From a virus: 13,306 nt of DNA. Shown here one piece after another: positions 1 to 13,306 of the stretch. The translations under genes and the position numbers were made by a program. Below the pieces are notes generated by a model. That model saw nothing but the letters and a program-made list of their open reading frames with translations, was not told the DNA's origin and did not search any database. The DNA is taken from IMG/VR virus record IMGVR_UViG_3300045988_153975, one strand, 5' to 3'. Numbering within the stretch: the stretch's first letter is position 1; each line of letters begins with the position of its first letter.

Positions 1-207
1 GTGGTAGTACTTTAGCACATTAAAGTGGTAACGCATTAACGCTTCACCACACTAAAGTTCCCACATGCACTTGTCTATGCACTAGAATTGTTAACAGCAC
101 AAGTTTTAGTTAATATAAAATAGTTGTTGACAAAGAATAACTAGTGTGCTATAATCTTTTTAGAAACAAGATAACAGTTTTAAATGAAAGGAGAAACATA
201 TGTATAC
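1..207. repeat. Left inverted terminal repeat (ITR-L), 207 bp
   Basis: I reverse-complemented 13100..13306 by hand and it matches 1..207 at every base. Identity ends at position 208 (a, against t in the mirror). A terminal location next to a protein-primed polymerase fits a phi29/Cp-1-type replication origin. Confidence 0.97.
127..155 (+). promoter_or_regulatory. Consensus sigma-70/sigma-A promoter inside ITR-L (early, left arm)
   Basis: TTGACA (127-132), a 17-nt spacer, then TGcTATAAT with the -10 at 150-155 and the extended TG at 147-148. It lies about 45 nt upstream of the ATG at 200. Confidence 0.85.
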
Positions 208-610: not shown

Positions 611-640
611 AAAGAGGGCTATAAGCCCTCTTTCTTTTAT
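611..640. terminator. Bidirectional intrinsic terminator between convergent genes
   Basis: The stem pairs 611-619 (AAAGAGGGC) with 625-633 (GCCCTCTTT) around a short loop. CTTTTAT follows on the + strand. The hairpin sits between the stop at 608 (+) and the stop at 637 (-). Confidence 0.8.
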
Positions 641-1992
641 AAGTTAACCGGCATCCAAGTCCAGTCCGCGGGAACTTTATCATTGTAGTAAATCGAATCA
701 CCATTTTCAAGAATGATGCAATTAGCGGCCTGTGCTGATAAAAGTTGATCTCCGTGGTTCACAAAGGTCGCGCCTTGCCCCCGCTGATAAACGATCACGG
801 TTGAACCTGTGTCATTTACAACCGCATGTTCTGCATCAGCGGCGGTCGGTATAGTTTTACTGATTAACCGGATAGCAGGCTGTGAGAACTGTGATAATTG
901 CCCTTTGATGTCGACGTTGCAAGTTTTATCAAGTGCAAGAACATCATGTGTTTTCGTGTTATTTTTGAGAAGCACAGAGAAATCATTTCTCAGCCCTTTG
1001 CACTCCAGAGCAGTGGCGTTGTTGAACAGAAAACAGTCATTGATATAGTTATCAGATGAGAGCATTTTCAGCGCAACGCCAACGGTGTTTGAAAAGATAA
1101 AACAATTCACAACTCTACTACCACCAAAGGTGAGATTTAAAGCACATACATCAACGCCGTTCGGATTGTTGAAACCCGTGCTTTCAATCTGCGTATTAAA
1201 CAGGTAACATCCCGCATTATCCGTGCAAGCTGTCTTGCTGTTTGCATAAAAATGCGAATTGTTAATGATACTAGCGGTCGCGGTGTATTTTTCACTCTTT
1301 TCAAGTGATAAAGCGTCTCCGTTAAGATAAAACCAGCAATCATGAAAAATGCTGTCATGCGGGCCTTTCCAGATCACACCGATCGTATTATTGTAAAAGC
1401 GACACTTTTCAACGATCGTTTCCATGAATCCAACGTTACCCTCATCCGTTTCCGTCACGCCGCCCAGATACGTTGCCCATTCCGATACTAAGCCCTGTTC
1501 ACAATTATGGATATACACATGTGACAGTAAATTGCGGTAACCGTACATCCTCAGACCGCCGTGGGTAATTGACAGATTGCACAGGATTGCATCATGGACA
1601 CCGCCGGGAATATTACTGTTAACAAGATCTTCATAGCCAGCTGTTTTTACCAACCCCTCTATAACACTAGAATCGCTGTTTTCGCCGATTATTGTACAAT
1701 CATTACTGATATAAAGACTGTCAACTTTGTACGTTCCTGCAGGGATGAAAATAGATTTATATTTATCCAGGGCGTTCTGGATTACCGCCGTATCGTTTGT
1801 AACACCATCACCTTTAGCGCCCAGAAGTTTGACGTTAACAAAGTTTGTAATTTTAAAGTTCACAAGCAGTTTTTCAATAATCTCGTCTGGAAGATTATTA
1901 AAATCTTCTCTCAATTTTTTCATTTCCTCAATTATCCAGTCAAGGTTGAGTTCATGAAAATTTGTGTACGGAAACTGGTCGAATAATCCCAT
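637..1992 (-). CDS. Tail appendage / tailspike (receptor-binding) protein with pectate-lyase-like beta-helix, phi29 gp12-like by position
   Basis: It contains the motif LLGAKGDGVTNDTAVIQNALD...IFIPAGTYKV, typical of pectate_lyase_3 / right-handed beta-helix depolymerases. It is the last gene of the structural operon, after the collar genes. RBS AAAGGGGGA. Confidence 0.75.
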   Translation of the reverse strand: MGLFDQFPYTNFHELNLDWIIEEMKKLREDFNNLPDEIIEKLLVNFKITNFVNVKLLGAKGDGVTNDTAVIQNALDKYKSIFIPAGTYKVDSLYISNDCTIIGENSDSSVIEGLVKTAGYEDLVNSNIPGGVHDAILCNLSITHGGLRMYGYRNLLSHVYIHNCEQGLVSEWATYLGGVTETDEGNVGFMETIVEKCRFYNNTIGVIWKGPHDSIFHDCWFYLNGDALSLEKSEKYTATASIINNSHFYANSKTACTDNAGCYLFNTQIESTGFNNPNGVDVCALNLTFGGSRVVNCFIFSNTVGVALKMLSSDNYINDCFLFNNATALECKGLRNDFSVLLKNNTKTHDVLALDKTCNVDIKGQLSQFSQPAIRLISKTIPTAADAEHAVVNDTGSTVIVYQRGQGATFVNHGDQLLSAQAANCIILENGDSIYYNDKVPADWTWMPVNL

Positions 1993-2005: not shown

Positions 2006-2845
2006 TTAATAAATTCTTAAACAAAACCGTTTTTTGAAATCATTGATAATGAAATCAATGATATTAAACACTGCAATTTCACGTTCGGCGGTAATCATCC
2101 GTTGCGTCATGGTCACACCGATGTTTCCGGTTTCCACCTGTTCATGAGTCGTTTCACCCGTGTTATTATCAGACGTTTCACGTGAAACATCATTTGTTTC
2201 ACCGCCCATGTTCGCAATTGTTTTTGTGCCCTTATTTGTTACTTTTCCGCTTCCTGTGAAATCCTCTGTGCTTTCTGTGCTGTTGTTCTCGCTTGCCGTG
2301 CTGTTTGTTTTCTCCCGGTTCTGAAAATCGGTGCTGTCATAAGCACTGACTTTCCCGGTTCTTTCATCCTGCTCTGTGCGGGTGTTTGTGCCCGTTCCGG
2401 TTGTTTTATTTTGCGTGTCGCTAGTTGATGTAAATTCATCAGTAGTTGTCCCGTTAGCGTTCGTGGTTTTTGTTCCTTTTTCCGTTTCCGTTCTTGTGCC
2501 GCTTCCGGTCTGCCGTTCCGTCCAAGTGCTTTTTCCGTCTTTGTTCCAGATCGGATTGTACTTATAACAGATCGTGTTATACATTTTTTGCCACACTAGT
2601 TTTTCTTTCGCAGACCAAATTTTGATGATTCGCTTTAATGCGTTAAAGTCTGCATGAAGAATCTCAAATTCTGCACACTCAATCAGAAGATTTTCTACTA
2701 CGCTCTGAGGATTGATGGCAACATCAGTGTAATAGGAATCCGCATAACCGGACGGTATCCCGTCCTTGTTCGGAAGATTTTCAATCAGACCATCCAGAAG
2801 TGATTCATCAAAATTATACAGTCCTAACAGGCTCATCGTTGCCAT
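2006..2845 (-). CDS. Putative lower collar / tail tube protein (phi29 gp11 position)
   Basis: It lies immediately downstream of the connector gene, as gene 11 does in phi29. I place the start at the ATG at 2845, with AAGGGGG 8 nt upstream. The ORF-track start at 2854 is a GTG with no spacing to the RBS. The central ~125 aa form a T/N/G/E/S-rich low-complexity tract. Confidence 0.45.
   Translation of the reverse strand: MATMSLLGLYNFDESLLDGLIENLPNKDGIPSGYADSYYTDVAINPQSVVENLLIECAEFEILHADFNALKRIIKIWSAKEKLVWQKMYNTICYKYNPIWNKDGKSTWTERQTGSGTRTETEKGTKTTNANGTTTDEFTSTSDTQNKTTGTGTNTRTEQDERTGKVSAYDSTDFQNREKTNSTASENNSTESTEDFTGSGKVTNKGTKTIANMGGETNDVSRETSDNNTGETTHEQVETGNIGVTMTQRMITAEREIAVFNIIDFIINDFKKRFCLRIY
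2185..2198. promoter_or_regulatory. Copy 1 of the palindrome GTTTCACGTGAAAC (intragenic)
   Basis: This is an exact 14-bp palindrome inside the lower-collar ORF, encoding ..DVSRET... Its flanks (ac...at) are the same as those of the 6391 copy. Confidence 0.5.
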
Positions 2846-3728
2846 CTTCCGCACCCCCTTTATATCTCCAATTCACATCCAGTTTGATACCGAACATCTC
2901 CCGCACTTTTTCGCAGGATTCTTTCAGCTCTTCCAGCCAAAGGTCACATTTCGACCGGGTTTCCACCTTATTCGCGTTCACCTCATCGGTAATCAACCGC
3001 TCCTTTTTGTCCGTGTTGGCGTTCGGGATTCCAACGTCTGTGCAGAACATAGCTTCGATTTTACGCATGTCCGAAAGCACCTGATCTGCGATATAGTTTT
3101 GTCCGACATTCTGGTTGAACATCTGCCAGTTGGCCTTACCGTCGTCCCGGAAAAGCTCTTTGTCGATCACAGCGGCTACGTTTCCAGCGGCGATCTGATC
3201 ATAGAGCTTTTTGAATGTTTCCGCCGTGGCTTTATTCTCGGCGGCGAACACATAAGCAAGTTTGCTGTTCACCAGATTCATTCCCACCGATTCCGCACAC
3301 AACGCTAACATATCCGCATAGTAGGTAACAATATCCATAATCCCGCCGTAATCGGGCTGTAGTCTAACCAGTTCACACTGTAAGCCAATGCGAGGTTCTA
3401 GTGTGCCAGACAGGAGCGGGTTCGTGATGATAGCGTTCGTCGGCTGGTAGAACACATCATACCCACGCAAACCGCAAGCCTGTGGGATCACTCCGTATCG
3501 ATCTGTATTGACTACTGCGAAAAAGCCCCAACAGTACAGTGTGTAAAGAGTATAGTTTTTTGACCATTCAGCGGGCATCTCCCATTTAAAGACGCTCATT
3601 GCTTTCTGTAAAAGATACCTCTGAAAATAAAGAGATAAGCTGGTATTCCGGCAATGGACGGTACTCGGCGAAATCACCGAGTTCGCCGCATTGATATAGT
3701 CTGCTGAAAAGGGTATCCCATTATACAT
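2814..3728 (-). CDS. Head-tail connector / portal (upper collar) protein, phi29 gp10 family
   Basis: The C-terminal block GIPNANTDKKERLITDEVNANKVETRSKCDLWLEELKESCEKVREMFGIKLDVNWRY closely parallels recalled phi29 gp10 ([21 protein letters not shown]...[22 protein letters not shown]). Size is similar (304 aa against about 309 aa). Confidence 0.88.
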   Translation of the reverse strand: MYNGIPFSADYINAANSVISPSTVHCRNTSLSLYFQRYLLQKAMSVFKWEMPAEWSKNYTLYTLYCWGFFAVVNTDRYGVIPQACGLRGYDVFYQPTNAIITNPLLSGTLEPRIGLQCELVRLQPDYGGIMDIVTYYADMLALCAESVGMNLVNSKLAYVFAAENKATAETFKKLYDQIAAGNVAAVIDKELFRDDGKANWQMFNQNVGQNYIADQVLSDMRKIEAMFCTDVGIPNANTDKKERLITDEVNANKVETRSKCDLWLEELKESCEKVREMFGIKLDVNWRYKGGAEDGNDEPVRTV

Positions 3729-4803
3729 TCCTTCTATCCCTCCGCTTCTTTTTACTGAGAATAGCGATCAGAAACGTCGTTCCCGATCCGGGTAATGCCC
3801 CGGTACTGAGGAAGCGATAAATTAACACTGCATTGTTATAACGCTCTGCTTCGCTGAGGTATCGGTTTCCTTTCGCCCATGTTGTGATAGTCATGTCATT
3901 TGCATGGGAAACGATATAGTCATAACAGTTCCGCGCATACTGCACACGCGCGTCCCACGAACTGTCATGGATTCCTTCCCAGCCGATATTCCATGCATGA
4001 GTTAATGCTTCAATGTCTGTGCTGTCACTGGTCAAAAATTCAGTCAGATTATTGTAAGCCGATGCTTCCCCGGTGCTGTACCAGACATTTTCGTGGATCA
4101 GATAGTTCAGCTGACCAACTCCATCATCATCCACATAGCCGTTGTTCATTAACCATTCATTTAACTTGTACAGTCTCCCATGCGTATCCCCTTCTGTGTT
4201 CGTCCACTGACCAAGACCGAACCCGACAAGCAGATCAGTAAACGTGGATTCATTCAGATCCTGCCAGATTCCGGGATTGATGCCGGACTCCTGCCAGAAG
4301 TTTCCACAGATAGCGGCTACCACATAAGCACTGCTTCCTTTCGCTCCGCTTGCTCCACTGCCAAAGCGGTGGCAAGTGTCCCAGGTAGCAGGATTGCTGT
4401 CACCCGTGTTAATGGAAACCTGCTCTCCGAGAGGATAAGTGGAACTGTGCGCACCCATGGTTCTGCGCCCGTCATAGACCATTTCTGTGTGATTCCCGTA
4501 ATTGTTGTTCCGCACAAGAATATCACCGGGTTTCCATGCATCAGCAACCGGGACACGGTTAAAGCCGAGGGCATCCAGTACACCGCCCATGTCATAAGTG
4601 GTGAATGGCCATGACTGGCCTCCATGCGCGGGAACCACATCAAAGCCGGATGCCAGAAGAGCATACCAGATAAAGGAACTACAGTCATAATAAGTAATTC
4701 CGTTAACTGTCTGCTGATTCCGGTACGTCTGTGAGTAGCCGACATTCTTTTTGTTACAGGTATCAATAGCCCATTGATATGATACCTGTATATTGCCCGC
4801 CAT
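3721..4803 (-). CDS. Two-domain peptidoglycan hydrolase: N-terminal NlpC/P60-type endopeptidase plus lysozyme/transglycosylase-like domain
   Basis: The NlpC/P60 signature is YYDCSSFIWYAL (Cys) ... PGDILVR...GNHTEMVY (His). The second domain has AAICGNFWQESGINPG...GFGLGQWT, a phage tail-lysozyme-like motif with a Glu. Its start overlaps the upstream stop (TAATG). The C-terminus is hydrophobic then basic. Confidence 0.85.
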   Translation of the reverse strand: MAGNIQVSYQWAIDTCNKKNVGYSQTYRNQQTVNGITYYDCSSFIWYALLASGFDVVPAHGGQSWPFTTYDMGGVLDALGFNRVPVADAWKPGDILVRNNNYGNHTEMVYDGRRTMGAHSSTYPLGEQVSINTGDSNPATWDTCHRFGSGASGAKGSSAYVVAAICGNFWQESGINPGIWQDLNESTFTDLLVGFGLGQWTNTEGDTHGRLYKLNEWLMNNGYVDDDGVGQLNYLIHENVWYSTGEASAYNNLTEFLTSDSTDIEALTHAWNIGWEGIHDSSWDARVQYARNCYDYIVSHANDMTITTWAKGNRYLSEAERYNNAVLIYRFLSTGALPGSGTTFLIAILSKKKRRDRRNV

Positions 4804-4982
4804 TAACGGTACCTCTTGATGATCGGGAGAAGTTCATTTACGCATTTCTGCACACTGACAGGATCAAAGCCGTCCGCTTTTAACCGTTTGATGCGGTCAC
4901 TTCCGTTTCCATAGTTCCCGCCAATTACCAATATAGCTACTGCAACAGTAGTCGGCAGTGAATACATTTTAATCTCACTCAT
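4803..4982 (-). CDS. Small ORF absent from the ORF track (59 aa): hydrophobic N-terminus plus a single CW_7-like (Cpl-7 type) peptidoglycan-binding repeat
   Basis: My translation is MSEIKMYSLPTTVAVAILVIGGNYGNGSDRIKRLKADGFDPVSVQKCVNELLPIIKRYR. RBS GAAGGGGGA lies 7 nt upstream. It overlaps the upstream gene by 8 nt and the downstream gene through TAATG. G.YGNG..R...L...G.D...VQ..VNELL matches the CW_7 repeat consensus as I recall it. Confidence 0.7.
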   Translation of the reverse strand: MSEIKMYSLPTTVAVAILVIGGNYGNGSDRIKRLKADGFDPVSVQKCVNELLPIIKRYR

Positions 4983-6372
4983 AATAAAATCCCCCTTCTA
5001 AAAATTCTTTTACCATTTTCTTTTCCGGTTCGGTTGCGGAAAAATTGATCGCACCATTTTCCACTTTCACATACCCGGTACAATCAGAAATCTTCCGGTG
5101 CTGACAGAGCGGTGAGCCGTTATCAGCTTTGTCATACGCGACTTGCGAAAAATAGTTCGCTTTCAGCGCAACAAAGTGACCAAGACCAATTGCCGCCATA
5201 CCGCTGTTAGTCCCGGTTGTATTCAAAATGCTGTTGCTCGCTTCCATGGATGAAGCGATACCAGACCCAGAAAAAGCGCCAGCAAGACCAGACACCAGTC
5301 CGTTCCACGCCGTTGATAATGCACCAGATAAGCCTGAATATTGTTTTTCGTAGTTGAACGCGACATTGGAAAGCTGTATGGTCACACCAACTTGCGCCTG
5401 GCCTTCATAGAGAAGTCTGTAGTTCTGAGTATCCTCACCAACCCTTGATTCGATTCGCAGGATTCCCTTACCAGTCACAAAGTCAAATGTCGCCGTGAAA
5501 AGAACATCATCAACAATTTTGTTACCGTCCAAGGGGATCACGCCCCACGGATCGGCTACCGCGTAATACTCAGCAAAGGGCGGATATCTCAGATAAACCA
5601 GATCCTCATTATGCGGGCGTTTCGGTCTTTTCAATGTCAACGTCTGCGAGGATGTAGTAGAAATCAGCTTGTGCCCTGTCAGTGTCGGAGTAGACCAGAA
5701 CCCGAACCCAAGCGGTGTTGCTCCTTCTTCTGCAGGAACTGGAACAGGGAACCACAAGCAAGAAACCACATATTGAAAGGGGTCAATGAATGCTTTCGCT
5801 ACATCTCCTGCGAAATCGGTAATCTGATCCCAAGACTGAATAGAACCGAGCATGTAGGCGCGAAAAGCCGCCATTTCTGCGCCTGTCAGTGCATAGTACG
5901 CGACACCGCCTGCGACCGTATCATTGTTGTTTACCAGACCCACCACATAAGTTCCTTTATCCAGATCTGGGTTTACCCAGTCCCAAGAACCCACGTTTGA
6001 TGCGTTTTCCACGCCGACGACGGTAGGATATAAGCTATCAATGATTGTCGGGTCTTGGAACGTAGCGCATCTCAGAATATAAGCGGTGGTGTCACCAATC
6101 ACTGTTTTATACGTTGCAAGAACATCCTCAGACAGAACGACGCGCCAGATACCTTTTTCCCAAATCACATCCTGCACAAAGTAATACCGTGAGAAAGCGG
6201 GGATATAGGCATAGTTGTAAGTAGTCACATTTTCAACCACTTCCAGTTCCGGTCTGATGATAGAGGTGTTATCTTTTAAAACGGCTTGTATAGTCAATCC
6301 CCCCGCTGAGGGGGGATTTTTTGTACTGTTGAGCCGTTTAGAAAAGGTGTAAAGAGTAACTGATAATGCCAT
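4975..6372 (-). CDS. Tail knob / distal tail protein (phi29 gp9-like)
   Basis: It follows the capsid gene. The N-terminal pattern ...YAYIPAFSRYYFV....SEDVLATYK is comparable to phi29 gp9 (...WFYAFV...EIDVLQTW). A Gly/Ala/Ser-rich hydrophobic segment (GLSGALSTAWNGLVSGLAGAFSGSGIASS) and a C-terminal block resemble the gp9 membrane-active loop and C-terminus. Confidence 0.6.
   Translation of the reverse strand: MALSVTLYTFSKRLNSTKNPPSAGGLTIQAVLKDNTSIIRPELEVVENVTTYNYAYIPAFSRYYFVQDVIWEKGIWRVVLSEDVLATYKTVIGDTTAYILRCATFQDPTIIDSLYPTVVGVENASNVGSWDWVNPDLDKGTYVVGLVNNNDTVAGGVAYYALTGAEMAAFRAYMLGSIQSWDQITDFAGDVAKAFIDPFQYVVSCLWFPVPVPAEEGATPLGFGFWSTPTLTGHKLISTTSSQTLTLKRPKRPHNEDLVYLRYPPFAEYYAVADPWGVIPLDGNKIVDDVLFTATFDFVTGKGILRIESRVGEDTQNYRLLYEGQAQVGVTIQLSNVAFNYEKQYSGLSGALSTAWNGLVSGLAGAFSGSGIASSMEASNSILNTTGTNSGMAAIGLGHFVALKANYFSQVAYDKADNGSPLCQHRKISDCTGYVKVENGAINFSATEPEKKMVKEFLEGGFYYE
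6296..6322 (+). other. Strong GC hairpin plus T-run embedded in the tail knob coding sequence (terminator-like on the antisense + strand)
   Basis: AATCCCCCC (6296-6304), loop GCTGA, GGGGGGATT (6310-6318), then TTTT to 6322. On the - strand the same bases encode KNPPSAGGL. Confidence 0.4.
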
Positions 6373-6405: not shown

Positions 6406-7629
6406 TTATGAAGCGGTTGGATCGGCAACATAAAAGACGATAGCATTTTCCGTAAAATCATTCCAGTAACGATCTGTGAAGTGCCAGAACTGATTGTAGT
6501 AGCCACCTCTAGCATTGAACGGACTTGGCTGTGACCACTCGTTTACGGTTGTGTATCCTGCCGCTTCTTCATCAAAAAGAACGCCGAATACATTATTGAT
6601 AGCTATGTTGTCACTCGTGTTCAGAGTGCCATCTTTGTTCAGCATCACCGGTGTGTTCTGAATCTGAGAAGGATTTAAAGCCGACTGCCAGAAGTTCACT
6701 CTTTCAAAGTCAACGAGTTTGAGAAAGTCGGGATTGAAAACACTAGAATAAATCTCGCTGTTGATTTTATTAACCAAATCAGTATACAGATAGAACTTCA
6801 TTCTGTCTTTCGGAGTATGCCGAACAACCGTATAGTTCGTCAGCTGTGAAGAGAACAGTGTGTTCCTGTCTGTCATTAAATCCGCAAGCGTATTGATTGT
6901 TGAAAATGCGAATTTCACAAAGCTTTCAAAATTCTCCGCTTTGAAAATATCGTTGACCCCTAACGCCCTGCCGTTTGTCTCATTATACAACGACAGAAGA
7001 TCGATTGCACGTTTGCCGCCGTTTGATTTTGCCATGGTATTTGCCGTACCGGCTGTTGTCTCAGCCGCATAAATACCAGAAATCAGATTATTGATTGTAG
7101 CTCTTGCGGTTTCCTCATGCGCCTGCTCAATCATATCCGAAGCGTTCTGCATGACCATCGAAATGAAGGACGCGAACTCATCGGGGGAAGAGAAAGCGCA
7201 ATCAAGCTGATCTTTGTAGATCGTCACCGACTTCTGATACTGATTCGCACCGTAAAAGTTTGTCTGTAAAACTTTCGGTTTGTTAACCTTATACTGATCA
7301 ATAGACTCCCCGTCAACCAGCTTCAAACGATCATCATCCTCGAACGGTTTGTCGATCGTCAGAAGTTTACGAACATGATTTCCATACCGCTGATTGGATA
7401 CGTTCAGCCCTCTAAATTTCCGTGTGTACGGTCTGACAGAGAAAATTGTCCGTGACAGAACCTGTGAAATTGCAGTAGTCAACGGGTCGTAACCAGTTTT
7501 CAACGCCATCTGTGCAACAGACACAAAGGAAGCAGTATCAACCGGTGCAATATTATTCACTCCAGTAGCCTGATTTGTAATCGCTGTCAGCACGGTTGAC
7601 AGCTGATCAAAGCTTAAATCATTTGCCAT
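6406..7629 (-). CDS. Major capsid protein (phi29 gp8 family)
   Basis: It follows the scaffold gene with a TAATG overlap. Blocks AENFESFVKFAFSTINTLA and NARGGYYNQFWHFTDRYW parallel recalled phi29 gp8 segments WGNFESFVSSIINAIYNS and NPRGLYWNYYYHVWQ. Confidence 0.82.
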   Translation of the reverse strand: MANDLSFDQLSTVLTAITNQATGVNNIAPVDTASFVSVAQMALKTGYDPLTTAISQVLSRTIFSVRPYTRKFRGLNVSNQRYGNHVRKLLTIDKPFEDDDRLKLVDGESIDQYKVNKPKVLQTNFYGANQYQKSVTIYKDQLDCAFSSPDEFASFISMVMQNASDMIEQAHEETARATINNLISGIYAAETTAGTANTMAKSNGGKRAIDLLSLYNETNGRALGVNDIFKAENFESFVKFAFSTINTLADLMTDRNTLFSSQLTNYTVVRHTPKDRMKFYLYTDLVNKINSEIYSSVFNPDFLKLVDFERVNFWQSALNPSQIQNTPVMLNKDGTLNTSDNIAINNVFGVLFDEEAAGYTTVNEWSQPSPFNARGGYYNQFWHFTDRYWNDFTENAIVFYVADPTAS

Positions 7630-7991
7630 TATTTTTTTTCTCCTTTCGGGTTGATGATGGATGCTAAAATATCATCGGTGGTTTCCCTCTGTGTGACGGG
7701 CTGAGATGAGAAAAGCAATGCCTGCTTTTTCATGTCCTCCCGAAGTCCTAACAGAGCATCCAGAACGGGATCACCGGATGTTTCCGTCTGCTGAACCTGG
7801 GCTGTCTGCTGAACCGGAGCTGTCTGCTGAACCTGGGCTGTCTGCTGAACCGGAGCTGTCTGCTGAACCGGGGCTGTCTGCTGAACCGGGGCTGTCTGCT
7901 GAACCGGGGCTGTCTGTAAACCAGCAAGAGCCACAATCTGATCTCGGGTGAACCCGGCTTTTGCTAACACTAAAATGTCTTCCTGTTTCAT
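7629..7991 (-). CDS. Putative scaffolding protein containing a (TAPVQQ)n repeat
   Basis: It is a small (120 aa) gene directly upstream of, and translationally coupled to, the capsid gene, as phi29 gene 7 is. It has charged termini and a good RBS (GAAAGGAGAA). Confidence 0.55.
   Translation of the reverse strand: MKQEDILVLAKAGFTRDQIVALAGLQTAPVQQTAPVQQTAPVQQTAPVQQTAQVQQTAPVQQTAQVQQTETSGDPVLDALLGLREDMKKQALLFSSQPVTQRETTDDILASIINPKGEKK
7786..7917. repeat. Tandem 18-bp repeat, 7 full units plus a partial unit
   Basis: The unit is GTCTGCTGAACC(T/G)G(G/A)GCT. Units 1-4 form two 36-bp super-units. Units 5-7 are identical. In frame it encodes TAPVQQ / TAQVQQ within the scaffold ORF. Confidence 0.95.
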
Positions 7992-8185
7992 TTTTCTTTT
8001 TCTCCTTTCAATGATTCTTCCAGTCGGATAAGTGCCTGTGTGTTGTTGTTTAATGCATCTGTGATTTTTTCCATTTCCGCTTTATGGCTGTCGCTCTCTT
8101 TCATCATTCGCCAAAAGAGCGCGCCGCAACAGACGATTGGAAATCCCAACGTCTGCACCATGGTCATGATGACATTCGCGTCCAT
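7988..8185 (-). CDS. Small single-pass membrane protein (65 aa), YvrJ-like; holin candidate
   Basis: I prefer the ATG at 8185, with AAAGAGG 5 nt upstream. The ORF-track start at 8191 is a GTG lying inside the RBS. One hydrophobic helix (LGFPIVCCGALFW) is followed by a charged coiled-coil-like tail. The GFPI-hydrophobic-R pattern resembles the YvrJ family as I recall it. It overlaps the scaffold gene through ATGA. Confidence 0.6.
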   Translation of the reverse strand: MDANVIMTMVQTLGFPIVCCGALFWRMMKESDSHKAEMEKITDALNNNTQALIRLEESLKGEKEK

Positions 8186-8209
8186 ATCCACCTCTTTCTA
8201 TCCCGGTTT

Positions 8210-8316: not shown

Positions 8317-8345
8317 ATTATAACATGGAACCATCTTTTTAGCAA
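8317..8345 (-). promoter_or_regulatory. Candidate late promoter (TTGCTA, 17 nt, TGTTATAAT)
   Basis: On the - strand: TTGCTA (8345-8340), a 17-nt spacer, extended -10 TGT, TATAAT (8322-8317). It lies wholly within the ATPase/late-gene intergenic region, one base from the 18-bp palindrome. Confidence 0.65.
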
Positions 8346-8346
8346 G

Positions 8347-8364
8347 ATGTTTCACGTGAAACAT
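8347..8364. promoter_or_regulatory. Copy 3 of the palindrome, the longest form: ATGTTTCACGTGAAACAT (18-bp perfect)
   Basis: It is a perfect 18-bp palindrome. It overlaps the ATPase stop codon (8352-8354) and ends 1 nt from the -35 of the candidate late promoter. Confidence 0.6.
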
Positions 8365-9392
8365 TTTGTAAAAAGAACTTGAATGATATAGTTTTCAAGA
8401 TAAAGGGAGCGTGATAGGAACGCAATCCAGAGGTAACGATATTTCAAACGGAATCGCACCTTATCATTTTCACTCATGCTATAATTTTCTTTGAACACAC
8501 CAGACTTGAATGATGTGACGTAGTACTCCTGCCGTGACTTGTGACGATAGATATACATTTCCCCTACGTGAACCAACGGTTTGAACTCTTTGATGTTTCT
8601 ACTTCCTATATTGTCCGCCCTGTCTTTCGTGAACACATTTTTCAGTGCCATCTGGTAAAAGTCAGAATCCCTTGACACCAGATTGTACAATGCTGTCTTT
8701 TCTTTCGCTTCCGAAATCGGGCTGTCTTGACAGATGATCAGCGCCAGACCCCTTTCTTTATCAATCCAGATAGATGTGCCATTTTGATACATCTTCTCGG
8801 CTCTTAGCACAAGTCCTAGTGATATGAACAATTCATTTGCCATGTTATTACTATTAGCGGCGCAGATCACTTTGACGGGTGGAATCCCTTTCAATTCACG
8901 GTTTCGGTTAATTGTTTCATAGCAGTTAAAGAAAGCTTCCGCTTCGTTTTTCAATGGTCGCTCATGGGCTTCTGCAATGAACTCATCGTAGAAGATGAGA
9001 GAGATATCACTCGCATCAAAACCCCTCATATTCGAAATGGTTGACAGTGCAAGGGAATAACAGAACGGTTCTGGTGAAATAATCGTTCCTTCCATATCCG
9101 TTTCATAAAACGCACTGCTCTGCTTTGTTAGTGATACCGCCTTAAACAAGCGATTCATATCTCCCAGTACTGGTTTGAGCGGTGAAAATTCCGGTTTGGA
9201 TATGAGATCAGCTTGTGTCTGCGTCCTTCTCATCAGAGCAAACTTGATCTTCTTCTCAATGGCAAACTTACATACACCGTACGTTTTCCCTGTTCCCCGG
9301 CCGCCGACAATAAAGATAAACGGCACATCTATATTGTATATTGCTGGTATGTTGATAAAACCGTTGCGGTCATATATATTCTTCTCTTTCAT
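8352..9392 (-). CDS. DNA packaging (encapsidation) ATPase, phi29 gp16 family
   Basis: Walker A VGGRGTGKTY compares with phi29 GARGIGKSY. Walker B-like LIFYDEFI compares with IVFDEFI, and RNRE is shared. I prefer the ATG at 9392, with GAGGTG 6 nt upstream, over the GTG at 9401. Confidence 0.9.
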   Translation of the reverse strand: MKEKNIYDRNGFINIPAIYNIDVPFIFIVGGRGTGKTYGVCKFAIEKKIKFALMRRTQTQADLISKPEFSPLKPVLGDMNRLFKAVSLTKQSSAFYETDMEGTIISPEPFCYSLALSTISNMRGFDASDISLIFYDEFIAEAHERPLKNEAEAFFNCYETINRNRELKGIPPVKVICAANSNNMANELFISLGLVLRAEKMYQNGTSIWIDKERGLALIICQDSPISEAKEKTALYNLVSRDSDFYQMALKNVFTKDRADNIGSRNIKEFKPLVHVGEMYIYRHKSRQEYYVTSFKSGVFKENYSMSENDKVRFRLKYRYLWIAFLSRSLYLENYIIQVLFTKCFT

Positions 9393-9409
9393 ATGATACA
9401 CCTCTATGG

Positions 9410-9484: not shown

Positions 9485-9832
9485 TTACTCGGCATAGGCA
9501 CAAGTGATAAAGTGCCGTCCCGCTTTTGACTGACCAGCGATTACTTTTACGGCTGTGATCTCTTCTCCGTTGTCTGTGAACATGTCACACAGAACTGAAA
9601 AAGAATCTATGAATGTTTTACTGTTAGTCGCATATGCGACATTGTCCTCTGTCAGGATAGACAGAATAGTCTGTACATTTCCGTCCTTATCCAGATCAGA
9701 ATAGAGCATCCAGTTTTTTACCGGAATAACCATTCCCTCTGCATCTCGCATTCTCCGGATCTGCGGGTTAATGCTCATTAAATACTGTTCTTTTACAGAA
9801 ATTGTTTCATTTTTGCTTTTAATCACTTTCAT
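9485..9832 (-). CDS. Early protein of unknown function (115 aa); SSB or DNA-binding role possible from position only
   Basis: RBS AAAGGTGA. It is the second gene of a compact unit made of a consensus promoter, two genes and a terminator, next to the polymerase. I recognise no motif. Confidence 0.6.
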   Translation of the reverse strand: MKVIKSKNETISVKEQYLMSINPQIRRMRDAEGMVIPVKNWMLYSDLDKDGNVQTILSILTEDNVAYATNSKTFIDSFSVLCDMFTDNGEEITAVKVIAGQSKAGRHFITCAYAE

Positions 9833-10113: not shown

Positions 10114-10142
10114 ATTATAAACCCGTTTGTAGTTTTTGTCAA
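10114..10142 (-). promoter_or_regulatory. Perfect consensus sigma-A promoter (TTGACA, 17 nt, TATAAT) overlapping the polymerase stop codon
   Basis: On the - strand: TTGACA (10142-10137, containing the TGA stop of the polymerase), a 17-nt spacer, TATAAT (10119-10114). It lies about 28 nt upstream of the ATG at 10086. Confidence 0.8.
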
Positions 10143-12172
10143 GCTAATAAATTTGTGCCTTTTAAAATTTTTACTGATTGATTATACAACAGGGCATCCT
10201 GCAATATATCCTCATATTCCTTTGTAATGCCTACAGCATAAGTAGTAGGGCGTAGAACCACATTCTTGGTTATTTCGATTATCTTGCCATCTTTATTTTT
10301 ATATTTTGTTATTTCTGGATTGTCATTATAAACAGTTTCCAATTTGCCACAATCGCTAAATACGAAACCCGGCTTTAATACATCCAGCCCGCCCTTCCTA
10401 TTTAATTCTTCTGCGCCTGCTTTTTTCGGGACACCTGCGACCGCGATCTTTAATTTTCCGTCAGATTCATATGCATACTTTTTCGCACCCCACGTGATGA
10501 AACGGTCTGCATCTGCTTCCTGTTCATAAACTTCCATGTAATGTTCTTTGCCCCTCGGATCAGTAGCCCAAGCACCGTTTTCTTTTGACAACTTTATTTT
10601 TTCGTTATTATACTTTGAAAAATCCACATCGCCTAAATACTTGATCGAATCAGTATCACAGTAAATAAACGTTCCGCCTTGGCCAGTTACGATCCTCATT
10701 CCCTGTTCCAACTCATACCGCGCCCAAGCGGTACACCATACGCCCCATGTGTACGGTATGAACGCTCTTTTCATGAAATCTTCCAATAATTCTTTTTTGC
10801 TTTTCGAACTGTCAATAATAAACTCATCATCCTCATATAAAATCGACTCTTTGACGGGATCTTGTGCTGTCATTCCATAGATAGAATTTAATTTATTCTT
10901 TGATTTCATGTAAAGATACTCTTGACCATCTACATCTTTCAATTCTGTTTTCTTCCTATAGTATTCACAGATCGTGTCTACCATGACAGACGGTAATTTC
11001 CCGTATCGTGCACTGTAGACCTCGATTGGCACGATCTCATCAATGTGATACTCTTCTACGATGATTCGCAAATCAACATCTGTGATGGATGTTTCCAAAT
11101 AATCAGCGCTCAATATACGACCGTTATCGAAAACTCCATTGATAATACTCCGGCACTTATCTTTTGCCAGATAGGGACAACCCCAAGAATAGTCATTCAG
11201 TGAAACGCCACGAAATGATACCCTCATAAGGATTGCTTTTTCTCTTCTTTTCATCATGTCAATGATCTGCGATGCGTCTGGAACAGGTTTTGAAATTTTG
11301 TGAAAACGAGTGACTGGATACGCACAATTGCACTGTACTCCTGGGTAACTTGATGATCTGTCTGCCGAATGTACACCTTCCAATATCCAACCTGCATAAA
11401 ACCTGTTTGCATGGGTGTTTCCGCCCCTGAACGCTTCTCTTTCTAGTTGATATGTTTCAAAATCGGGCTGAATGCCCATGATCCATCTGTTCCCTGTCAG
11501 TGCGTTTTTTACGTCACGGCGAACATAACCGGTTGACGTCAAGGGGATCGTGTAGAGCGTGTCACCATCGTTTTTCATCTCAGTTTTGATGGCTTCTACT
11601 AGACCCAGCACATCGTTGATGCAGTATGCCAGTTCGGTTTCTGATAATTCAGTGTAACTGAAACGCTGAACGTTATAATCCAGATCGCCGGATAATTTCT
11701 TATGCTTTACATTCATTTTTTCTGTGAACACTTCCAAGGACATGTTCGTTTGAATATATGAGCATCGAAACTCGAAATGATCGTACATTTCACACTTGCA
11801 GACCTTTCTTTTATCCAGAGCAAATACCTCTTCTTTCGAAAACGGATAGATGCCGGAAAGAAACTGAAATTCAAAGGAAAGGTTATGGACATATACTACA
11901 ATGTATTCCATGTCTTCCAAACGTCCGGTTATTTCTTGCATGAAATATCTAAACTCCTCCCATGTTCTTCCTATCACTGTGCAGTTTTCGTCTACTTGAA
12001 ACTGCCAGATGTACATGACAGATTGCTCTATTTCTTTTATTCTTGTAGTTTCAATGTCAAAAGCGCAAACTAAATTATTGTAGTTTTTCTTGTTGCGAGA
12101 TCCTTTTTTCCTTTTAACTTTTCCTGCTTTTTTAAAAATCGAGTAATCAAAATCATATACATCTGTTATCAT
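10139..12172 (-). CDS. Protein-primed family B DNA polymerase (phi29 gp2-like)
   Basis: The motifs found are ExoI AFDIETT, ExoII YCINDVLGLV, YxGG-like FRGGN, motif A DRSSSYPG, motif B KNKLNSIYG, TAWARY, motif C YCDTDS and KKYAY. It sits next to a putative terminal protein gene, in a genome bounded by ITRs. Confidence 0.95.
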   Translation of the reverse strand: MITDVYDFDYSIFKKAGKVKRKKGSRNKKNYNNLVCAFDIETTRIKEIEQSVMYIWQFQVDENCTVIGRTWEEFRYFMQEITGRLEDMEYIVVYVHNLSFEFQFLSGIYPFSKEEVFALDKRKVCKCEMYDHFEFRCSYIQTNMSLEVFTEKMNVKHKKLSGDLDYNVQRFSYTELSETELAYCINDVLGLVEAIKTEMKNDGDTLYTIPLTSTGYVRRDVKNALTGNRWIMGIQPDFETYQLEREAFRGGNTHANRFYAGWILEGVHSADRSSSYPGVQCNCAYPVTRFHKISKPVPDASQIIDMMKRREKAILMRVSFRGVSLNDYSWGCPYLAKDKCRSIINGVFDNGRILSADYLETSITDVDLRIIVEEYHIDEIVPIEVYSARYGKLPSVMVDTICEYYRKKTELKDVDGQEYLYMKSKNKLNSIYGMTAQDPVKESILYEDDEFIIDSSKSKKELLEDFMKRAFIPYTWGVWCTAWARYELEQGMRIVTGQGGTFIYCDTDSIKYLGDVDFSKYNNEKIKLSKENGAWATDPRGKEHYMEVYEQEADADRFITWGAKKYAYESDGKLKIAVAGVPKKAGAEELNRKGGLDVLKPGFVFSDCGKLETVYNDNPEITKYKNKDGKIIEITKNVVLRPTTYAVGITKEYEDILQDALLYNQSVKILKGTNLLA

Positions 12173-12810: not shown

Positions 12811-12900
12811 TTAAAAACCAAATAAGTAAAGTATAGGCAGTGCTATGATTGATAGCACTGCCAAAATCGATATAAATATAATCTGTACTATTTCTTTCAT
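12811..12900 (-). CDS. Possible 29-aa hydrophobic micro-protein
   Basis: AAAGGAGAG lies 4-5 nt before the ATG at 12900. My translation is MKEIVQIIFISILAVLSIIALPILYLFGF, a single transmembrane-like helix. The caveat is that it overlaps a 10-bp perfect inverted repeat, so the region may be regulatory RNA instead. Confidence 0.35.
   Translation of the reverse strand: MKEIVQIIFISILAVLSIIALPILYLFGF
12837..12863 (-). other. Perfect 10-bp stem hairpin (GGCAGTGCTA / TAGCACTGCC, 7-nt loop)
   Basis: The inverted repeat is seen directly. On the - strand it is followed by the U-rich TATACTTTACTTATTT. It could be a weak terminator or attenuator between the terminal small gene and the replication genes. 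Confidence 0.4.
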
Positions 12901-12912
12901 TTTCTCTCCTTT

Positions 12913-13107
12913 CTATGCAATATGCAATAGGAGATAATCACCGTACTCACCACTCTCCAAACTGTACCTCTCAATTCTAATTCTAGTATTTGAAGGTAAT
13001 AAATCCGACAAAATGCCTTCGGAAATATATCTATCACCCCTATAAATCACGCACCACAATCCTTTGTTAAACTTCGTCAATTCTAAAACACTCTGTAAAG
13101 TATACAT
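12913..13107 (-). CDS. Small terminal early protein, paralog family member C (64 aa)
   Basis: It is the mirror-image counterpart of 200..394. It shares the same ITR-borne promoter, RBS and first 8 nt, then diverges strongly in nucleotide sequence while keeping length and a conserved protein scaffold. Confidence 0.8.
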   Translation of the reverse strand: MYTLQSVLELTKFNKGLWCVIYRGDRYISEGILSDLLPSNTRIRIERYSLESGEYGDYLLLHIA

Positions 13108-13306
13108 ATGTTTCTCCTTTCATTTAAAACTGTTATCTTGTTTCTAAAAAGATTATAGCACACTAGTTATTCTTTGTCAACAACTATTTTATATTAACTA
13201 AAACTTGTGCTGTTAACAATTCTAGTGCATAGACAAGTGCATGTGGGAACTTTAGTGTGGTGAAGCGTTAATGCGTTACCACTTTAATGTGCTAAAGTAC
13301 TACCAC
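13100..13306. repeat. Right inverted terminal repeat (ITR-R), 207 bp
   Basis: It is the perfect reverse complement of 1..207. Confidence 0.97.
13152..13180 (-). promoter_or_regulatory. Consensus promoter inside ITR-R (early, right arm)
   Basis: This is the mirror copy of 127..155: TTGACA, 17 nt, TGcTATAAT on the - strand. It probably drives the replication operon. Confidence 0.85.

Follow-up and report, generated by a model that had tools for sequence, protein, structure and literature searches.

The question raised by this locus is how a very small phage opens the wall of its host when its hydrolase carries no wall-binding domain, and what role is played by a 59 amino acid protein, encoded directly upstream of this hydrolase, which consists of little more than one wall-binding repeat of the CW_7 (Cpl-7) type. 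The locus lies in the viral record IMGVR_UViG_3300045988_153975, which was analyzed over its whole length of 13,306 base pairs (bp; "the window" below) and is the genome of a phi29-like, protein-primed podovirus of the human gut. An earlier reading of this DNA, made without database searches (the sequence-only reading), suggested that the two genes encode a PlyC-like two-component lysin. Judged by their arrangement and inheritance, the CW_7 and hydrolase genes appear to be a co-translated and co-inherited two-gene module. In the reading that we favor, the hydrolase, a relative of the phi29 tail enzyme gp13, may have taken over lysis from a separate endolysin.

The genes in the window, all of which are on the minus strand, were identified with Pfam and PHROGs. 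The features that belong to the pair are as follows:

4990..4998, minus strand: ribosome-binding site GAAGGGGGA of the CW_7 gene, inside the 3' end of the 465 amino acid gene (direct sequence reading)
4803..4982, minus strand: 59 amino acid stand-alone single CW_7 (Cpl-7-type) peptidoglycan-binding repeat (Pfam PF08230, profile, model)
4812..4817, minus strand: ribosome-binding site AAGAGG of the hydrolase, inside the CW_7 open reading frame (direct sequence reading)
3721..4803, minus strand: 360 amino acid two-domain peptidoglycan hydrolase, counterpart of phi29 gp13 (Pfam, model)
4366..4803, minus strand: N-terminal NlpC/P60-type (Amidase_5/ELLD) cysteine endopeptidase domain of the hydrolase, residues ~1-146 (Pfam, invariant columns, Foldseek)
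3802..4344, minus strand: gp13-type lysozyme-like domain of the hydrolase (PF18013), residues ~154-334 (Pfam, phmmer, Foldseek)
3724..3792, minus strand: C-terminal tail of the hydrolase, residues 338-360 (model segment of low confidence)

The 59 amino acid open reading frame (ORF) had been described as having a strong ribosome-binding site and as overlapping both of its neighbors, and all of these features are found on the minus strand. The ribosome-binding site sits 7 nucleotides (nt) ahead of the ATG, the ORF overlaps the stop of the upstream 465 amino acid gene by 8 nt, and its TAA stop and the hydrolase ATG have one base in common in a TAATG junction. The AAGAGG site of the hydrolase is located 8 nt upstream of the hydrolase ATG. 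This overlap, together with the position of AAGAGG inside the CW_7 ORF, indicates translational coupling between the two genes, which are separate, adjacent and part of one late operon. When the window was compared with 14 related genomes, the ratio of non-synonymous to synonymous substitution (dN/dS) was 0.043 for the 59 amino acid ORF and 0.035 for the hydrolase, with dS of ~1, and the variable sites of the ORF were distributed 13/7/50 over the three codon positions. Homologues of the protein form 721 clusters; the best 120 are all 58-90 amino acids long, mostly 59-61, and are encoded on contigs of 13-17.5 kb. This dN/dS ratio, the codon-position bias and the homologue clusters indicate that the ORF is more than a chance reading frame and is a real, constrained gene, and purifying selection, which matches that on the hydrolase in strength, confirms this observation. 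One member of the family was automatically named 'Cpl-7 lysozyme C-terminal domain'.

The assignment to CW_7, which had been put forward from the letters alone, holds in every comparison made. The Pfam CW_7 profile (PF08230) covers residues 14-52 with its positions 2-40 of 40 (expectation value (E) 8.9e-15; 54.6 bits, cut-off 25), and the Cpl-7 repeats of the PDB are retrieved with a profile of the 59 amino acid protein (5I8L, E 2.6e-26; 4CVD, E 7.7e-9). The AlphaFold (AF2) model, with a predicted local distance difference test score (pLDDT) of 91.7, has three helices (residues 11-20, 27-36 and 41-58), and its best Foldseek matches are again 5I8L and 4CVD, the latter with a root mean square deviation (rmsd) of 0.7 Å over 41 columns and a template modeling (TM) score of 0.81. 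The protein is thereby predicted to be a CW_7 three-helix bundle like repeat R2 of Cpl-7. The hydrophobic N-terminal stretch noticed earlier does exist, but it is not a separate segment ahead of the repeat, as it had been taken to be; it is helix 1 of the bundle.

In Cpl-7 R2, docking and saturation transfer difference nuclear magnetic resonance (STD-NMR) implicated R271, Q286, I261, N267, V260, G266, V289 and L293 in the binding of the N-acetylglucosamine–N-acetylmuramic acid (GlcNAc-MurNAc) dipeptide, and the first three of these were additionally tested by mutation (PMC5705596). The alignment places R30, Q45, I20, N26, V19, G25, V48 and L52 of the window protein at these positions, in the same order, so that all the muropeptide-contact residues from the Cpl-7 study are conserved. 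The stand-alone repeat probably still binds peptidoglycan.

As a rule, CW_7 repeats are parts of larger wall-active proteins and often come in tandem; in Cpl-7 and ~2,500 other proteins they are found in this setting, usually in 2-4 copies, whereas in the window a single repeat makes up the whole 59 amino acid protein. Single-repeat proteins of ~60 amino acids were 2 among the 150 best-scoring of 2,546 CW_7 proteins, a search of representative proteins that is a weak census of other stand-alone families since multi-repeat proteins dominate the ranking. The stand-alone proteins are 50-65% identical among themselves and 35-45% identical to the repeats in the endolysins of sister phages, and they have in common a conserved C-terminal extension, LLPIxxxY. 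They also differ from embedded repeats in helix 1. In 18 of 18 distinct stand-alone proteins the helix-1 nonamer has no charged residue and a mean Kyte-Doolittle value of 3.05, while in embedded repeats (441 and 35 of them) it has 2.8-3.3 charged residues and a mean value of 0.2-0.3. N258 and E259 of Cpl-7 are polar, and E259 forms an inter-repeat salt bridge (PMC5705596); their equivalents in the window protein are I17 and L18. An exposed helix-1 face that is fully uncharged in the stand-alone proteins only is suggestive of a protein interface, and the stand-alone CW_7 proteins may have gained a hydrophobic surface for protein–protein interaction, be it for a homo-oligomer, for contact with the hydrolase, or for both. 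No paper describing a stand-alone CW_7 family was found in the literature searched.

The partner gene encodes a 360 amino acid protein that, as had been read from its translation, combines an NlpC/P60 and a lysozyme-like domain and has no wall-binding domain that could be found with Pfam or in the AlphaFold model (pLDDT 89.6). In the N-terminal domain, Amidase_5, ELLD and NlpC_P60 profiles match residues ~10-120, with Amidase_5 above its threshold (24.1 vs. 21 bits) and NLPC_P60 below (18 vs. 23); C41 (YYDCSSF), H105 (HTEM) and H119 are invariant, and Foldseek retrieves the DL-endopeptidases CwlO, LytE and MepS and also RipA. In the second domain, PF18013 ('phage tail lysozyme') matches residues 154-296 with an E of 2e-19, phmmer matches 3CSR and 3CSQ (E 3e-5) with residues 156-203 aligned to phi29 gp13, and E172, which is invariant in 53 sequences, aligns with Glu45 of gp13. 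The best Foldseek match of the model is gp13 itself (3CSQ; rmsd 1.9 Å over 144 columns), followed by NlpC/P60 DL-endopeptidases. A C-terminal LytM/M23 domain like that of gp13 was looked for and gave no M23 match; the endopeptidase is of the NlpC/P60 type and N-terminal instead. The hydrolase stop overlaps the connector gene by 8 nt, and GenBank entries for homologues bear the name of gp13, 'morphogenesis protein 1'. The alternative in the sequence-only reading of an enzyme like phi29 gp13 was therefore right on the ancestry of the hydrolase (PF18013, 3CSR/3CSQ). Searches with Pfam and PHROGs gave no other peptidoglycan hydrolase in the window, and none was found in the large ORFs of the orphan-domain genomes CS229P2, L036 and L065; by profile searches, the 360 amino acid enzyme is the only one detected in the window genome.

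In window-type hydrolases the lysozyme domain ends with the helix GNRYLSEAERYNNAVLIYRFLS (window 3802-3870, residues ~312-334), while in the Hungatella phage CH17P1 and the Clostridium symbiosum phage CS229P2 (L001 6500-7510, L002 7347-8366) a homologous helix, NYWLSMGEMQNNALIIFRDLL, directly precedes the catalytic helix, which looks like a circular permutation inside one enzyme family. The C-terminal tail of the hydrolase consists of a short linker and a basic and hydrophobic helix (TTFLIAILSKKKRRDRRNV) modeled at low confidence, and in relatives of a Gly-rich linker and a K..MPxW..K/R motif; it could be a membrane-active or a tail-docking peptide.

What argues most for a functional link between the two products is the content of the position upstream of the hydrolase in related phages. 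We tallied 87 loci, sampled as 80 viral-contig loci with the best matches to the window hydrolase together with further contigs, and nearly all of them have the gene order holin, variable slot, hydrolase, scaffold, capsid, tail knob and connector. In 52 of the 87 the slot holds a complete endolysin, which can be NlpC/P60 with two CW_7 repeats, Amidase_3 with SPOR, NlpC/P60 with SH3, Amidase_2, or GH25 with DUF5648. An orphan CW_7 protein of 57-61 amino acids fills it in 19 loci, and an orphan PG_binding_1 protein of 85 or 94 amino acids, with Pfam matches above threshold, in a further eight (L034-L036, L038, L040 and L042, e.g., L036 7380-7637; L064 and L065, e.g., L065 8404-8688). These PG_binding_1 proteins have a Cys-rich C-terminal extension and are found with two different holin types. 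The orphan domains in the slot belong to two unrelated folds. In two loci from two samples (L087 and L088) the hydrolase itself begins with a CW_7 repeat, and its gene immediately follows a Phage_holin_4_1 gene; this natural fusion, P0157, is 404 amino acids long. The remaining six loci have a slot that is empty between holin and hydrolase (L071 and L079) or unreadable (L037, L063, L081 and L082, with L037 and L082 starting at the contig end). An endolysin and an orphan domain were never found together in the slot (0/87 loci).

The 57-61 amino acid CW_7 gene lies directly upstream of the hydrolase in the clade of the window, which includes L090 (hydrolase 60% identical), in CH17P1 and CS229P2 (~44%), and in L084. 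The pair occupies two genome positions: either after the holin, or, in the window clade including L090, away from the holin, between the 465 amino acid gene and the connector. That the pair is intact at a changed position indicates that it moved as a unit. The structural genes of the window clade are far more diverged from those of the 16-17-kb relatives than is the hydrolase (~60% identity), which gives a hint of horizontal transfer of the CW_7–hydrolase module. The locus L068 looked at first like a domain-loss intermediate with a truncated endolysin and was rejected as such, since the truncation is an artefact of ORF calling and the gene is intact.

The conserved adjacency, the movement as a pair, the natural fusion and the mutual exclusion with endolysins make a separate binding subunit and a dual-catalytic subunit a reasonable reading. 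Where the endolysin is missing an orphan domain is usually in its place, in two folds and once as a covalent fusion behind the holin, and the simplest account of this is that the gp13-type enzyme took over lysis. In the lineage of the window, the wall-binding module would have taken the place of the separate modular endolysin found in sister phages, or would be all that is left of it. Entry and exit would both depend on the gp13-type enzyme, borne by the virion in the first case and released through the holin lesion as an endolysin in the second, and the free CW_7 protein would target the wall in trans as a non-covalent, probably oligomeric subunit. We infer the formation of a complex, its stoichiometry, oligomerization through helix 1 and the dual role in entry and exit from these patterns, and for the overall reading, namely lysis by the gp13-type enzyme and its targeting to the wall by an orphan domain acting in trans, we see the scales as evenly balanced. 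A broader form, in which CW_7 or PG_binding_1 orphans in gut phi29-like phages in general oligomerize and dock on the gp13-type entry enzyme, making it an entry lysin and an endolysin at once and a dedicated endolysin dispensable, is a tentative proposal that we would rate somewhat below an even chance.

Several observations weigh against this reading. L071 and L079 have neither a binding domain nor a separate endolysin in the slot, and hydrolases without any binding domain indicate that the binding module is not obligatory; in both loci the holin is directly followed by the hydrolase (L071 1233-2411, L079 8772-9944), which has a ~40 amino acid hydrophilic N-terminal extension. The locus sample is built on the 80 best hydrolase matches, where hydrolase loci number at least 511, and the orphan domains in it represent only ~4 independent lineages. 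No feature of the hydrolase was found that tracks the presence of the orphan CW_7. One lead was a surface at residues 55-65 (DVV.A.GG..W) that seemed to co-vary with the orphan, being common to the window and CH17P1 clades and different in most endolysin-bearing loci, and it was dropped because this loop is also present in P0064, which has a complete endolysin with ELLD and CW_7 as its neighbor. The C-terminal tail was likewise rejected as a docking peptide for the orphan CW_7, since the tail type does not track the slot content; its motif occurs with or without an encoded orphan domain and is therefore no specific docking element. The hydrolase family as a whole is the counterpart of the virion protein gp13, and production beyond the need of the virion, as well as action from within the cell, would have to be assumed. 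Finally, the sole-hydrolase claim comes from profile searches, and the 465, 282, 200 and 83 amino acid proteins of the window are without family assignment.

One possible option is that the hydrolase is a virion entry enzyme only, while the CW_7 protein acts alone, for example as an accessory at the tail tip of the virion or as a free peptidoglycan-binding factor with an influence on lysis or on host autolysins, and lysis is brought about by the holin and host autolysins. The homology of the lysozyme domain to gp13, by sequence and by fold, fits this option, and so does the presence of the hydrolase in every related phage; its occurrence beside a complete endolysin in 52 related loci indicates that as a family it is a tail enzyme and not a dedicated endolysin. 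In the window, the hydrolase is placed among structural genes, between the 465 amino acid gene and the connector, and the search for an interaction surface on the hydrolase gave none. Yet a virion role of the CW_7 protein predicts no mutual exclusion, and the orphan domain and an endolysin never share the slot. Nor does such a role fit orphan domains of two unrelated folds filling the same slot, or a CW_7–hydrolase fusion directly after the holin, which is the classic holin–endolysin arrangement. Tail lysins are positioned by the virion and can in general do without a binding domain, which also counts against this option. We regard it as unlikely, although worth serious consideration.

Another hypothesis is that the 59 amino acid protein is associated with the membrane through its uncharged N-terminal stretch, whether it acts as a single-pass anchor, in the manner of a signal-arrest-release element, or as a holin or antiholin accessory that bears a wall-binding module. 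Residues 6-28 form a 23-residue uncharged run with a borderline maximum 19-residue Kyte-Doolittle value of 1.55, the homologue P0272 reaches values typical of holins, and in relatives the CW_7 gene comes after the holin. However, this stretch aligns to positions 2-10 of the CW_7 profile and contains helix 1 (11-20, ten residues) of a confidently modeled bundle that lies 0.7 Å from Cpl-7 R2. On its N-terminal side there is no net positive charge, the strongly basic flank being the C-terminal one, and with flanking charges reversed in this manner a membrane orientation would leave the binding residues in the cytoplasm. A crude insertion energy is less favorable than that of the phage's own holin (+5.3 vs. 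+3.2), and crude hydropathy is lower than in this holin as well, without being decisive alone. No hydrophobic segment is present in the orphan PG_binding_1 proteins, the analogues of the CW_7 protein, and the genome already has a separate holin. The main grounds for rejecting a transmembrane or signal-arrest-release N-terminus were the fold model, the flanking charges and these PG_binding_1 analogues. The single-pass holin or anchor that the sequence-only reading kept as an alternative is hence unlikely, given a helix inside the bundle of 10 residues, where a transmembrane helix would need about 18-20, and the reversed charges, and the membrane hypothesis as a whole is improbable.

It is very improbable that the ORF is a decaying endolysin remnant or is untranslated. 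It does lie where sister phages have a CW_7-repeat endolysin, and at 59 amino acids it is below the usual gene-calling length cut-offs. A relic does not fit the low dN/dS with near-saturated synonymous change and variation mostly at third codon positions, a length fixed at 57-61 amino acids though the partner hydrolases are just 44-60% identical, the hundreds of homologue clusters, or the strong ribosome-binding site, coupled stop–start junctions and conserved binding residues. A covalent CW_7–hydrolase polypeptide, made by programmed -1 frameshifting toward the 3' end of the CW_7 ORF, could be imagined from the -1 frame of the hydrolase relative to the CW_7 ORF and from the in-frame fusion P0157, but is hardly credible, as the hydrolase frame is open for just 10 codons upstream of its ATG, no slippery heptamer of the form X XXY YYZ occurs in the CW_7 ORF, and the hydrolase gene is equipped with a ribosome-binding site and an ATG of its own.

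If the favored reading, a gp13-type enzyme targeted in trans by a free CW_7 protein, is set beside known lysins, PlyC of the streptococcal phage C1 (a PlyCB octamer with PlyCA) is the closest in plan. In both systems a wall-binding and a dual-catalytic subunit are encoded by separate neighboring genes of one operon, and the host phage of PlyC is a small phi29-like podovirus as well. The binding subunit of PlyC is small and oligomeric (PMC4777826, PMC7098653), and the binding protein of the window is likewise small. PlyC is a stable non-covalent holoenzyme with binding and catalytic subunits at 8:1, and the uncharged helix-1 face of all stand-alone CW_7 proteins is an indirect hint of a comparable assembly. 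The two systems differ in both subunits. The small protein of the window is a predicted CW_7 three-helix bundle, so the binding module does belong to a fold family other than that of PlyCB, as had been foreseen, and the catalytic protein is an NlpC/P60 domain with a gp13-type lysozyme domain and a homologue of a tail enzyme, while PlyCA has GyH and CHAP with a docking domain. No PlyC chain was found among the sequence matches of both proteins at E <= 1, nor among the 50 best Foldseek matches per model (of 147 and 77 matches at E <= 10). The PlyC-like reading therefore stands for the two adjacent genes and for the architecture of a binding and a dual-catalytic subunit, and falls for homology to PlyCA and PlyCB; the resemblance is an analogy.

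The hydrolase can be compared with phi29 gp13 ('morphogenesis protein 1', the cell-wall-degrading enzyme of the tail tip; 3CSQ, 3CSR) by true homology of the lysozyme-like domain, with the catalytic Glu aligned. Both enzymes are bifunctional (glycosidase-type and endopeptidase), have no binding domain and are encoded by a late-operon gene beside lysis genes. They differ in the endopeptidase, which is LytM/M23 and C-terminal in gp13 and NlpC/P60 and N-terminal in the window, and one helix of the lysozyme domain appears to be circularly permuted. Moreover, phi29 has a separate endolysin, gp15, where none was detected in the window phage, and has no adjacent orphan binding protein. The repeats of Cpl-7 (4CVD, 5I8L) share with the window protein the repeat family, the three-helix bundle and the muropeptide-binding residues, and differ from it by the uncharged helix 1 and the LLPIxxxY extension of the latter. 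The sister-phage endolysins (240 amino acids, NlpC/P60-type with two CW_7 repeats; L017-L033 and others) share with it the slot and the repeat family at 35-45% identity, but they are complete enzymes with an amphipathic, charged helix 1, while the window CW_7 protein has no catalytic domain.

To our knowledge, PlyC is the only multimeric lysin made from two genes. The broader statement in the sequence-only reading, that PlyC is the only well-described multimeric lysin, does not hold, since Lys170, CTP1L, CD27L and LysIME-EF1 are multimeric as well, by means of internal translation starts (PMC7098653, PMC4777826). Such internal-start lysins, to which phi2638A also belongs, likewise yield a free binding domain that is needed for full activity. 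In their case the free domain comes from an in-frame start and pairs with the identical domain of the full-length enzyme, whereas in the window it has a gene of its own and a partner without a binding domain.

The rest of the window contains the following features:

10139-12172, minus strand: protein-primed-type DNA polymerase B (Pfam/PHROGs)
9485-9832, minus strand: phi29-type single-strand-binding protein (Pfam/PHROGs)
8352-9401, minus strand: gp16-type packaging ATPase (Pfam/PHROGs)
8317..8345, minus strand: sigma-70-like promoter match upstream of the holin, 10/12 positions with an extended -10 (consensus scan only)
7988..8191, minus strand: holin, 67 amino acids, one transmembrane segment, GTG start, first gene of the late operon (PHROG 4898 'holin', E 7.2e-9)
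7629-7991, minus strand: scaffold-like protein, 120 amino acids (Pfam/PHROGs)
6406-7629, minus strand: phi29-type major capsid protein (Pfam/PHROGs)
4975-6372, minus strand: 465 amino acid protein without family assignment (ORF)
2814-3728, minus strand: gp10-type connector (Pfam/PHROGs)
2006-2854, minus strand: 282 amino acid protein without family assignment (ORF)
637-1992, minus strand: pectate-lyase-like appendage (Pfam/PHROGs)

The ends of the window (1-207 and 13100-13306) are an exact 207-bp inverted terminal repeat, which indicates that it is a complete linear genome of 13,306 bp. A size of 13.3 kb is close to the lower bound of tailed phages. Each terminal repeat also holds a perfect sigma-70-like promoter match (TTGACA, 17 nt, TATAAT with TG). 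The closest database records come from human faeces, and the closest cultured relatives, Hungatella phage CH17P1 and Clostridium symbiosum phages CS229P1-3, infect Lachnospiraceae. The match at 8317..8345 is likely the late promoter, from which transcription would read through into the CW_7 and hydrolase genes, as no strong promoter or terminator match was found on the minus strand from there to 3721. Homologues of the holin are present in L001 and other loci, and in relatives the holin directly precedes the CW_7–hydrolase pair. The 465 amino acid protein was considered as a gp9 tail knob and rejected, because neither Pfam nor PHROGs gave a match and BLAST showed no similarity to a genuine gp9 homologue (L084 6352-7920); it is only the positional counterpart of the tail knob of relatives.

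Some further observations concern other parts of these genomes. The scaffold-like protein (7629-7991) contains ~8 tandem copies of the hexapeptide QQTAPV (variant QQTAQV), and in the early region near the genome end (12811-12900) there is a 29 amino acid, strongly hydrophobic ORF (MKEIVQIIFISILAVLSIIALPILYLFGF) that may encode a small membrane peptide. The last structural protein of L065 (15373-16626) has a GDSL/SGNH esterase domain with a weak CBM_5_12 match and may be a tail enzyme that modifies the receptor; in its place the window phage has the pectate-lyase-like appendage. On the 20-kb contig L091 (scaffold_2822 of ERZ16268088), the hydrolase homologue P0058 and phage genes are found beside bacterial galactose-utilization genes (aldose epimerase, major facilitator superfamily (MFS) transporter and galactokinase), which points either to an element that has been integrated or domesticated or to a chimeric assembly; a 317 amino acid protein upstream of P0058 matches PG_binding_1 weakly.

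The pattern of orphan binding genes that replace endolysins is widespread and is undescribed in the literature searched, although the component families are known. Cultured relatives exist (CS229P1-3 on Clostridium symbiosum and CH17P1 on Hungatella), which makes the hypothesis directly testable. If the two products do work together, they would represent a second kind of two-gene lysin after PlyC, with other folds for both subunits, and a common one, as the sequence clusters from Clostridia phages of the human gut number in the hundreds. Wall-binding modules would then be seen to be exchangeable as free-standing genes, and lysin engineering would gain a natural trans-acting targeting module of ~60 residues against walls of the Lachnospiraceae type. 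For the phages themselves, it would mean that very small genomes economize by relying on a single wall-degrading enzyme on the way into the host and on the way out.

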